This document shows, piece after piece, positions 307 to 1,446 of a stretch of 23,525 nt of DNA. A program made the translations under genes and the position numbers. The DNA is from a virus (Duplodnaviria > Heunggongvirae > Uroviricota > Caudoviricetes). A model generated the notes under the pieces. The model worked only from the letters and a program-made list of their open reading frames with translations. It was not told the DNA's origin and searched no databases. Within the stretch, counting starts at the first letter, position 1; every line of letters begins with the position of its first letter. The DNA lies in the IMG/VR virus record IMGVR_UViG_2526164619_000010, positions 1 to 23,525 of that record. The stretch is one strand, 5' to 3'.

Positions 307-556
307 GAGATAACCCGGAAAATTCAGACTTAGTACTATTATGTGATAAAAGTCACATTTTTCCACATTGGATGAGCCAGTCAAGACTCAATCATTTTTT
401 GAACAAATAGATAAATTTTGCGCAACGGCAGTGAATACAGGAAAAATCGTTTTGAGCGATTTTATTTATCTTTGATATCGGCTTTATTAATTCATTTAAT
501 CGGTAATGCTGCCAACTTACTGATTTAGTGTATGATGGTGATTTTAAGGTGCTTGC

Positions 557-832
557 ATGGCTTCCATTTCCATCAGATGTCCTTCCTGCTCCGCTACTGA
601 AGGCGTGGTGCGTAACGGCAAAAGCACTGCCGGACATCAGCGCTATCTCTGCTCTCATTGCCGTAAAACATGGCAACTACAGTTCACTTACACCGCCTCT
701 CAGCCCGGTACGCACCAGAAAATCATTGATATGGCCATGAATGGCGTCGGATGTCGCGCCAGTGCACGCATTATGGGCGTTGGCCTCAACACGGTTTTAC
801 GTCACTTAAAAAACTCAGGCCGCAGTCGGTAA
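557..832 (+). CDS. insA: IS1 InsA (transposition repressor / N-terminal part of transposase)
   Basis: 91-aa [46 protein letters not shown]..., recognisable as IS1 InsA with zinc-finger cysteines; stop TAA 830-832. Confidence 0.92.
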
Positions 833-1254
833 CCTCGCGCATACAACCGGGCAGTGATGTGATTGTCTGCGCTGAAATGGACGAACAGTGGGGCTACGTC
901 GGTGCTAAATCACGTCAGCGCTGGCTGTTTTACGCGTATGACAGGATACGGAGGACGGTTGTGGCGCACGTCTTCGGTGAACGCACTCTGGCCACACTGG
1001 AGCGTCTTCTGAGCCTGCTGTCGGCCTTTGAGGTCGTGGTATGGATGACGGATGGCTGGCCGCTGTATGAATCACGCCTGAAGGGAAAGCTGCACGTTAT
1101 CAGCAAGCGTTACACTCAGCGCATTGAGCGACATAATCTGAATCTGAGACAACATCTGGCAAGGCTGGGACGGAAGTCACTGTCGTTCTCAAAATCGGTG
1201 GAGCTGCATGACAAGGTCATCGGGCATTATCTGAACATAAAACACTATCAGTAA
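751..1254 (+). CDS. insB: IS1 InsB (expressed as InsAB' transposase by -1 frameshift at the A6C motif 808-814)
   Basis: 167-aa ORF ending ...[21 protein letters not shown], the IS1 InsB sequence; overlaps insA 3' end in the -1 frame; slippery TTAAAAAAC at 806-814. Confidence 0.88.
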
Positions 1255-1446
1255 GTTGGAGTCATTACCCAAAACGTGAAGTAATATTTCAGCTGGCGAA
1301 TAATATCCGACAGTAATCACTCTGCGCAATAGCGCGGCCTTTTTCATATTGCGGGCTGTTGTCTATCTTCTGCCATTGTCCTGTAACTTCCGGACTTCAG
1401 CCCGCTCCTCATTTTACTCACAATATTATCCAGGCCGGGAGGATTC

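Follow-up and report, generated by a model that had tools for sequence, protein, structure and literature searches.

An intact IS1 element as the probable breakpoint of a chromosomal rearrangement joining the drpB locus to a defective prophage in Shigella flexneri K-315

An intact IS1 element in a draft contig of Shigella flexneri K-315 lies between two stretches of DNA that each have a separate native context in related genomes. We consider it probable that this element is the breakpoint of an IS1-mediated chromosomal rearrangement, for which an inversion of ~100 kb provides the best fit. The DNA analyzed here, hereafter the window, forms the final 23,525 bp of contig AKMY01000042.1 from the draft assembly GCA_000268165.1, which appears as K-315 in the Shigella flexneri block of a published strain table (PMC6397287). 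Gene order on the source contig is dsrB...yedJ-drpB-IS1-esterase...tail. In the proposed arrangement, the left end of IS1 would occupy a target in the drpB-yedS intergenic region (CATTTAATC), and its right end a target (CAAAACGTG) within the late-regulatory region of a lambdoid prophage, where phage tRNA genes lie on one side and an esterase gene on the other.

The IS1 element and its two flanks

The left part of the window contains the following features, given with coordinates, strand and the basis of each assignment.

1-282, minus strand: drpB (yedR), encoding a cell division protein (NCBIfam NF038392, div_DrpB_YedR); described earlier simply as a small membrane-protein gene
283-501, no strand: left part of the native drpB-yedS intergenic region, ending in the 9-mer CATTTAATC (uninterrupted E. 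coli loci)
502-1269, plus strand: complete IS1 (IS1F-like iso-IS1), 768 bp (ends and flanks inspected)
557-832, plus strand: insA, 91 aa (open reading frame list; NCBIfam transpos_IS1 profile positions 1-81; IS1/IS1595 zinc-binding domain)
751-1254, plus strand: insB' frame, -1 relative to insA and open throughout (open reading frame list; NCBIfam transpos_IS1)
1270-1446, plus strand: prophage DNA upstream of the esterase gene, starting with the 9-mer CAAAACGTG (uninterrupted prophage copies)
1447-3408, plus strand: SASA-family carbohydrate esterase with DUF1737, SASA and DUF6645 domains, NanS-p-like (Pfam; RefSeq homologue names)

The element starts with GGTAATGCTGCCAACTTACTGAT and finishes with ATCAGTAAGTTGGAGTCATTACC. 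These termini form imperfect inverted repeats, such that the 23-bp terminal repeat is complementary at the first 7 and the last 13 positions (20/23). Reading frame 2 carries insA and frame 1 carries insB', with an A6C slippery motif (AAAAAAC) at positions 808-814. The insB' product matches the NCBIfam transpos_IS1 profile (NF033558) over profile positions 75-199 with a score of 147.9 bits (cut-off 100), and Pfam DDE_Tnp_IS1 is recorded for the called IS1 gene. Because both frames are open and the A6C motif is present, the window IS1 can encode an InsAB' transposase. A 99.7% identical copy in E. coli strain EC2 is annotated as an IS1 family transposase with a programmed frameshift. Length, inverted repeats and the insA/insB' arrangement with its A6C -1 frameshift are all shared with the IS1 family (IS1F type, E. 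coli K-12/Shigella). Pairwise identity to the window copy is 99.9% for copies in S. boydii Sb227, 99.74% for the EC2 prophage copy, 99.5% for a RefSeq-annotated IS1F, 96% for a copy in E. coli strain 1283 and ~91% for IS1A (~9% diverged).

What sets the window copy apart from a simple insertion of this family is the lack of an 8-9-bp target duplication. IS1 duplications are typically 8-9 bp long, and the flanks of an element become separated when an inversion or a duplication arises between IS copies (PMC12065110). The 9-mers at the IS1 edges, CATTTAATC (493-501) and CAAAACGTG (1270-1278), are exactly those given in the sequence-only reading, which had called them unrelated; they agree at three of nine positions. 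We also scanned for duplications of 6-12 bp, allowing one mismatch and displacing each IS1 end by as much as 8 bp. No 8- or 9-bp duplication around IS1 was found by this end-shift scan, in which the sole match was a trivial 6-mer. Ends, flanking 9-mers and scan thus agree with the earlier description of a complete IS1 that lacks a target-site duplication, and correcting the IS ends does not uncover a flanking repeat. The window contains only this one IS1 copy, and hence no partner 9-mer beside another IS1 within its 23,525 nucleotides; CAAAACGTG recurs once, at position 12267 and away from any IS, and CATTTAATC is unique.

The left flank is ~99% identical to the E. coli drpB locus. The drpB product matches NF038392 with 151.9 bits (cut-off 50), and E. 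coli has a RefSeq-annotated drpB at the corresponding position. In many E. coli strains, the uninterrupted site reads ...TTCATTTAATC/AATATATTAGC... at the IS1 insertion point, where TTCATTTAATC continues as AATATATTAGCACTG toward the yedS porin gene and hchA. In E. coli strain 1283, an IS1 is inserted at precisely this position and in the orientation seen in the window, with CATTTAATC on both sides followed by native intergenic DNA. As the IS1 in strain 1283 is a different variant (96% identity), it demonstrates that the target is used by IS1 rather than that an insertion was inherited. In strain TA8571, an IS1A is located 1 bp further on with the duplication ATTTAATCA, and in a larger group of E. 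coli strains an IS1A lies 7 bp further on and is joined directly to a truncated hchA. TA8571 carries a second IS1 ~420 bp further on.

Among the 5,426 complete E. coli genomes that we scanned for junctions, 32 have an IS1 in the small drpB-yedS interval, at three insertion points within 8 bp (window 485-501; records L002 4500-4520, L004 5490-5510 and L031 3060-3080). The start of the drpB-yedS intergenic region is therefore a recurrent hot spot for IS1 in E. coli. An exact-protein look-up with drpB returned unrearranged loci only. The same type of look-up with a 94-aa open reading frame that spans the left junction returned only the source contig, and this junction with this IS1 variant was absent elsewhere.

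The right flank belongs to a prophage whose relatives were found through look-ups with a 44-aa DUF1378 product encoded in the window. These relatives are complete Shigella chromosomes, S. boydii CDC 3083-94 among them (assembly name from PMC6397287), and their copies of the prophage share ~99.5% identity with that in the window. Over 231 bp, the right flank is 100% identical to three uninterrupted Shigella prophage copies. The empty prophage site in complete Shigella genomes reads ...GGAATAAACAA/CAAAACGTG..., with the longer forms GGAATAAACAA/CAAAACGTGAAG and GGCAAGGAATAAACAA/CAAAACGTGAAGTAATATTT. Natively, the DNA upstream of this site contains three tRNA genes, an N6/N4 DNA methyltransferase gene, a gene for a 65-aa product and the Q antiterminator gene, beyond which lies the early region. 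The junction between IS1 and the esterase side is reproduced in an independent assembly (record L008). An identical esterase of 653 aa also occurs in a related lineage, for example in assemblies GCA_049894805.1 and GCA_026022055.1.

This prophage target is also occupied in E. coli EC2 (NZ_CP058571; record L003, 5001-5768), where an IS1 is inserted in the same 9-bp target and in the same orientation relative to the esterase gene. The EC2 copy is flanked by a perfect 9-bp duplication, TAAAACGTG, the first base of which is a natural C/T polymorphism also present in record L017. The absent duplication in the window is a property of the insertion event, and not of the IS1 element. EC2 is the only one of the 5,426 complete E. 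coli genomes with an IS1-esterase-side junction. We considered whether its IS1 is identical by descent with the window copy and rejected this, since the EC2 prophage flanks are only ~92-93% identical to the window compared with 99.7% for the IS1 itself. Judged from these identities, the EC2 insertion is probably an independent hit on the same target.

A breakpoint between two insertion sites

The IS1 in the window combines the left junction of an insertion at the drpB site with the right junction of an insertion at the prophage site. Both parental sites are documented in empty and in IS1-occupied form, and one flank from each meets at the window junction. The two flanks occur together in none of the 5,426 complete E. 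coli genomes, and no genome was found in which they are contiguous. Because IS1 here pairs the junctions of two different insertion sites, we read the sequence as showing that the drpB flank and the prophage were not originally contiguous and that IS1 marks a rearrangement breakpoint. The comparison with related uninterrupted genomes located both native sites and supports a rearrangement junction. It also bears out the earlier proposal that DNA to the left of IS1 did not originally adjoin the prophage, as each flank has its own native context elsewhere.

The likely type of rearrangement is indicated by where related genomes carry the prophage. S. boydii Sb227 and four other genomes contain a prophage remnant that matches the tail half of the window prophage (14159-23525) at 99.1-99.8% identity. 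At the end of the Sb227-type remnant is a dinI-like gene, after which come the first ~96 nt of yecE and then yecD; the late genes point towards yecD, and yecE and yecD are on the strand opposite to them. In unrearranged E. coli, with drpB on the minus strand, yecD and yecE are on the plus strand and 79 kb to the left of drpB, and argS together with flagellar and chemotaxis genes lies in between. We infer from these relatives that the K-315 prophage is likewise anchored in yecE, with the qualification that rearrangement is extensive in Shigella chromosomes. For a prophage located in yecE, as in Sb227, record L049 and others, the parental IS1 sites would be oppositely oriented on the E. coli backbone. 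A prophage in yecE, ~80 kb from drpB and in opposite orientation, is best accommodated by an inversion, so the geometry appears to favour inversion over deletion. The sequence-only reading had seen the missing duplication as the signature of IS1-mediated deletion or recombination; an IS1-mediated breakpoint is indeed what we find, whereas the deletion part of that proposal fits this geometry less well.

Two routes could have produced such an inversion. Homologous recombination might have taken place between an IS1 at the drpB site and an IS1 at the prophage site, or a single resident IS1 might have moved into the other site by one-step intramolecular replicative transposition. Either way, roughly 100 kb between inversely oriented IS1 copies would have been inverted, made up of ~79 kb of chromosomal DNA and the early region of the prophage. 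IS1 reportedly promotes adjacent deletions and inversions by intramolecular transposition, as Reif, Saedler and Cornelis are said to have described for gal and Tn951. The window resembles this classical outcome in that one end keeps its old flank and the other gains a new target, with no direct repeat. Recombination between two pre-existing copies yields the same junctions, and the two routes, leaving identical sequence, are inseparable here. The IS ends, the missing duplication, the two native contexts and the use of both targets by IS1 in other genomes are seen directly in sequence, whereas event type, pathway and prophage position in K-315 are inferred.

An inversion would move the early region of the prophage elsewhere rather than delete it. 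By comparison with relatives, this region has probably been relocated and not lost. An earlier suggestion that the upstream prophage region had been lost thus holds in part: the native upstream DNA (Q, methyltransferase, tRNAs and early region) is cut off from the late genes, whereas the yecE geometry points to inversion instead of loss. The inversion predicts a reciprocal junction with the order Q-methyltransferase-tRNAs...GGAATAAACAA-CAAAACGTG-IS1-CATTTAATC-AATATATTAGC...yedS, which would be recognizable by GGAATAAACAACAAAACGTG followed by the IS1 left end and by the IS1 right end followed by CATTTAATCAATATATTAGC. This reciprocal junction was not recovered when contig collections (genome, viral and metagenome) were scanned for the expected patterns; the yedS-side pattern gave only two matches in the genome contig collection, both from unrelated E. 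coli.

A comparable join is present in a 2.6-Mb contig (record L049), in which yedI is joined to the prophage, at the position equivalent to window 14159, through a copy of the same IS1 variant that lacks a target-site duplication. The relative orientation is the same as in the window, and the truncated yecE and yecD are inverted at the far end. This contig shows that joins between the yed region and the prophage really occur. Its yecE additionally contains an IS1A that has a normal 9-bp duplication.

In Sb227 and other genomes, the major tail gene is interrupted, again without a duplication, by the IS1 variant found in the window (99.9% identity; records L049, 1965-2721, and L055, 2107-2874). 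In both Sb227 (CP000036) and contig PTES01000001.1, this tail-gene junction involves the same IS1 variant and the same prophage as the window and likewise lacks a target duplication. These junctions differ from that of the window in their breakpoint, which is at window-equivalent 14159 as opposed to 1270, and the window prophage is uninterrupted at 14159. Their left flank also varies: one of the two genomes has yedI there, and the other has a gene for a PocR/AraC-type regulator. A direct descent of the L049 arrangement from that of the window was rejected, as Sb227 has the same IS1/tail-gene junction with another left flank. Given this different flank, and given that the yed region of L049 differs from that of K-315 at 0.2%, sequence comparison identifies the L049 and K-315 joins as independent events. 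An exact-protein look-up with the tail protein gpI yielded short read-assembly contigs only.

A deletion would leave an identical junction sequence. According to this explanation, directly repeated IS1 copies recombined, or a resident IS1 generated an adjacent deletion, and yedS and the prophage early region were removed. Deletions of this type have precedents close at hand, both at the same E. coli locus, in the IS1A located 7 bp to the right and joined to truncated hchA, and within the window itself, where an IS600 is associated with a deletion 2.4 kb away. Shigella genomes are also known to lose DNA between homologous IS copies (PMC7373316). The yecE prophage site, however, lies to the left of drpB and is inverted, so that deletion between direct repeats needs a prior rearrangement. 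Moreover, the interval from yecE to drpB contains argS, which a deletion would have to remove. The argS gene is essential. L049 furthermore retains yecD in inverted form beyond the prophage, which is the signature of an inversion. Deletion is possible if the K-315 chromosome had already been rearranged beforehand, and on balance we regard it as an unlikely origin of the junction.

We attach still less probability to an assembly artefact, in which two ordinary IS1 insertions exist in K-315 and a draft assembler joined the wrong flanks through a multi-copy repeat. Several circumstances would be conducive to such an error: the contig is a draft with two high-copy IS elements internal to it, the junction-spanning open reading frame occurs in no other assembly, Shigella chromosomes hold hundreds of IS copies (PMC7373316), and the copies of this IS1 variant share 99.9% identity. 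Nonetheless, the independent long contig L049 has the same kind of join between the yed region and the prophage through the same IS1 variant, the IS1-esterase junction is also present in L008, and nothing in the sequence itself looks chimeric. Finally, a simple insertion whose duplication decayed or was missed through wrongly set IS ends, in favour of which one can cite only that IS1 repeats are sometimes 8 bp instead of 9 (PMC12065110), is refuted by the end-shift scan and by the uninterrupted native sites of both flanks, which are two distinct and well-conserved loci that remain 99-100% identical to their native counterparts and hence are undecayed.

Context and consequences

An IS1-mediated breakpoint, with inversion as its best fit, conforms to what is known of Shigella genomes. 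IS1 and IS600 have expanded in these genomes, with rearrangements and deletions taking place between homologous copies (PMC7373316, Hawkey et al. 2020), and IS-mediated rearrangement in Shigella is also attributed to Yang et al. 2005, as cited in PMC7373316. The window resembles the described cases of IS-mediated inversion, deletion and genome decay (PMC7373316) in the IS types involved, in having breakpoints at IS elements, in gene loss and in the presence of a defective prophage, and it does not differ from them in kind. Element, mechanism and organismal context are all known, and the arrangement is a textbook outcome of IS expansion in Shigella. A non-exhaustive literature search found no published description of a breakpoint between drpB-yedS and a yecE-type prophage.

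Beyond annotation, the junction is of little importance and adds one more case of IS1- and IS600-driven genome scrambling in Shigella. It represents a structural breakpoint in the chromosome of S. flexneri K-315 at which the prophage is cut off from the Q antiterminator and the early region. Synteny-based annotation or scaffolding across the window IS1 will mislead.

It is mildly notable that both 9-bp targets have been reused by IS1 in unrelated strains, and that the yed region has repeatedly been joined to the yecE prophage. A broader proposal would be that each of the two targets acts as a recurrent, near site-specific hot spot for IS1 and that exchange between the yed region and the yecE prophage is a favoured rearrangement that locks in a defective prophage. 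We consider this proposal very doubtful. If it were true, the late operon would be cut off from Q-dependent antitermination with retention of the esterase gene.

IS600, the lysis cassette and the remaining prophage

The remainder of the window, to the right of the esterase gene, consists of three features.

3543-3677, plus strand: DUF1378 gene, truncated to 44 aa, with a stop codon provided by the IS600 end (homologue comparison)
3675-4937, minus strand: IS600 (IS3 family) lacking a target-site duplication (NCBIfam transpos_IS3)
4939-23525, plus strand: defective lambdoid prophage with an HK97-like head (Pfam; 98.8-99.8% identity to complete Shigella prophages)

The name IS600 follows RefSeq usage in record L001, where a transposase gene in the region from drpB to hchA has the product name “IS3-like element IS600 family transposase”. 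Intact DUF1378 homologues annotated in E. coli are 183-195 nt long, and IS600 truncates this gene in the Shigella relatives as well. In record L010, the same IS600 insertion is accompanied by a 3-bp ATC duplication and is followed by genes for DUF826, holin, lysozyme and Rz. In the window, IS600 instead directly abuts the interior of an HNH gene, and the ATC duplication is gone. Relative to L010, 3.83 kb are absent (L010 11398-15222), and the genes deleted at IS600 are those for DUF826, holin, DUF1327, lysozyme and an Rz-like product, together with the 5' end of the HNH gene. A 6-bp microhomology, CCTCAA, is present at the join between IS600 and the HNH gene. The open reading frame at 4889-5191 is a hybrid that begins inside IS600.

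On the strength of this sequence comparison, we conclude that the lysis cassette was lost in a second and distinct IS-associated event. The sequence-only reading had expected the lysis region upstream of the esterase gene. This expectation is contradicted by intact relatives, in which the order is esterase, DUF1378, DUF826, holin, DUF1327, lysozyme, Rz-like gene, HNH and terminase; their lysis cassette is downstream, and in the window it has been removed beside IS600.

A further arrangement is found in a complete Shigella chromosome (CP026766.1; record L017, 10158-20135), where a truncated ptrB adjoins the same IS600 within DUF1378. Following ptrB are exoX, holE, yobA, yebZ and yebY, and then an integrase gene disrupted by an IS. 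This arrangement is another IS600-mediated rearrangement of the same prophage.

The prophage genes to the right of IS600 comprise the 5'-truncated HNH gene, the small and large terminase subunits, protease-capsid, portal, head-tail connectors, tail tube and tape measure, followed by the tail-tip genes M, L, K, I and the start of J. Compared with intact homologues, several of the late genes are interrupted (window 6041-7683, 9919-11243 and 17618-20779). The large terminase is represented by products of 392 and 90 aa compared with 553 aa in intact form, the portal is in several pieces, and the tape measure is divided into 809 and 223 aa compared with 1086 aa. These interruptions reflect either prophage decay or homopolymer errors in the draft assembly.

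The window stops inside the tail-tip gene J, which is also the end of contig AKMY01000042.1. Identity to related prophages falls to ~91.6% over the last 154 bp of the window (in the 23300-23525 region), and the contig probably breaks at a repeat that is common to several prophages. Three tandem 162-nt repeats are located at 11405-11890, with 100%, 77% and 60% identity to the first copy. They lie inside the open reading frame at 11240-12301, a gene for a 353-aa product that follows the portal and has no Pfam match, and they probably encode a repeated domain.
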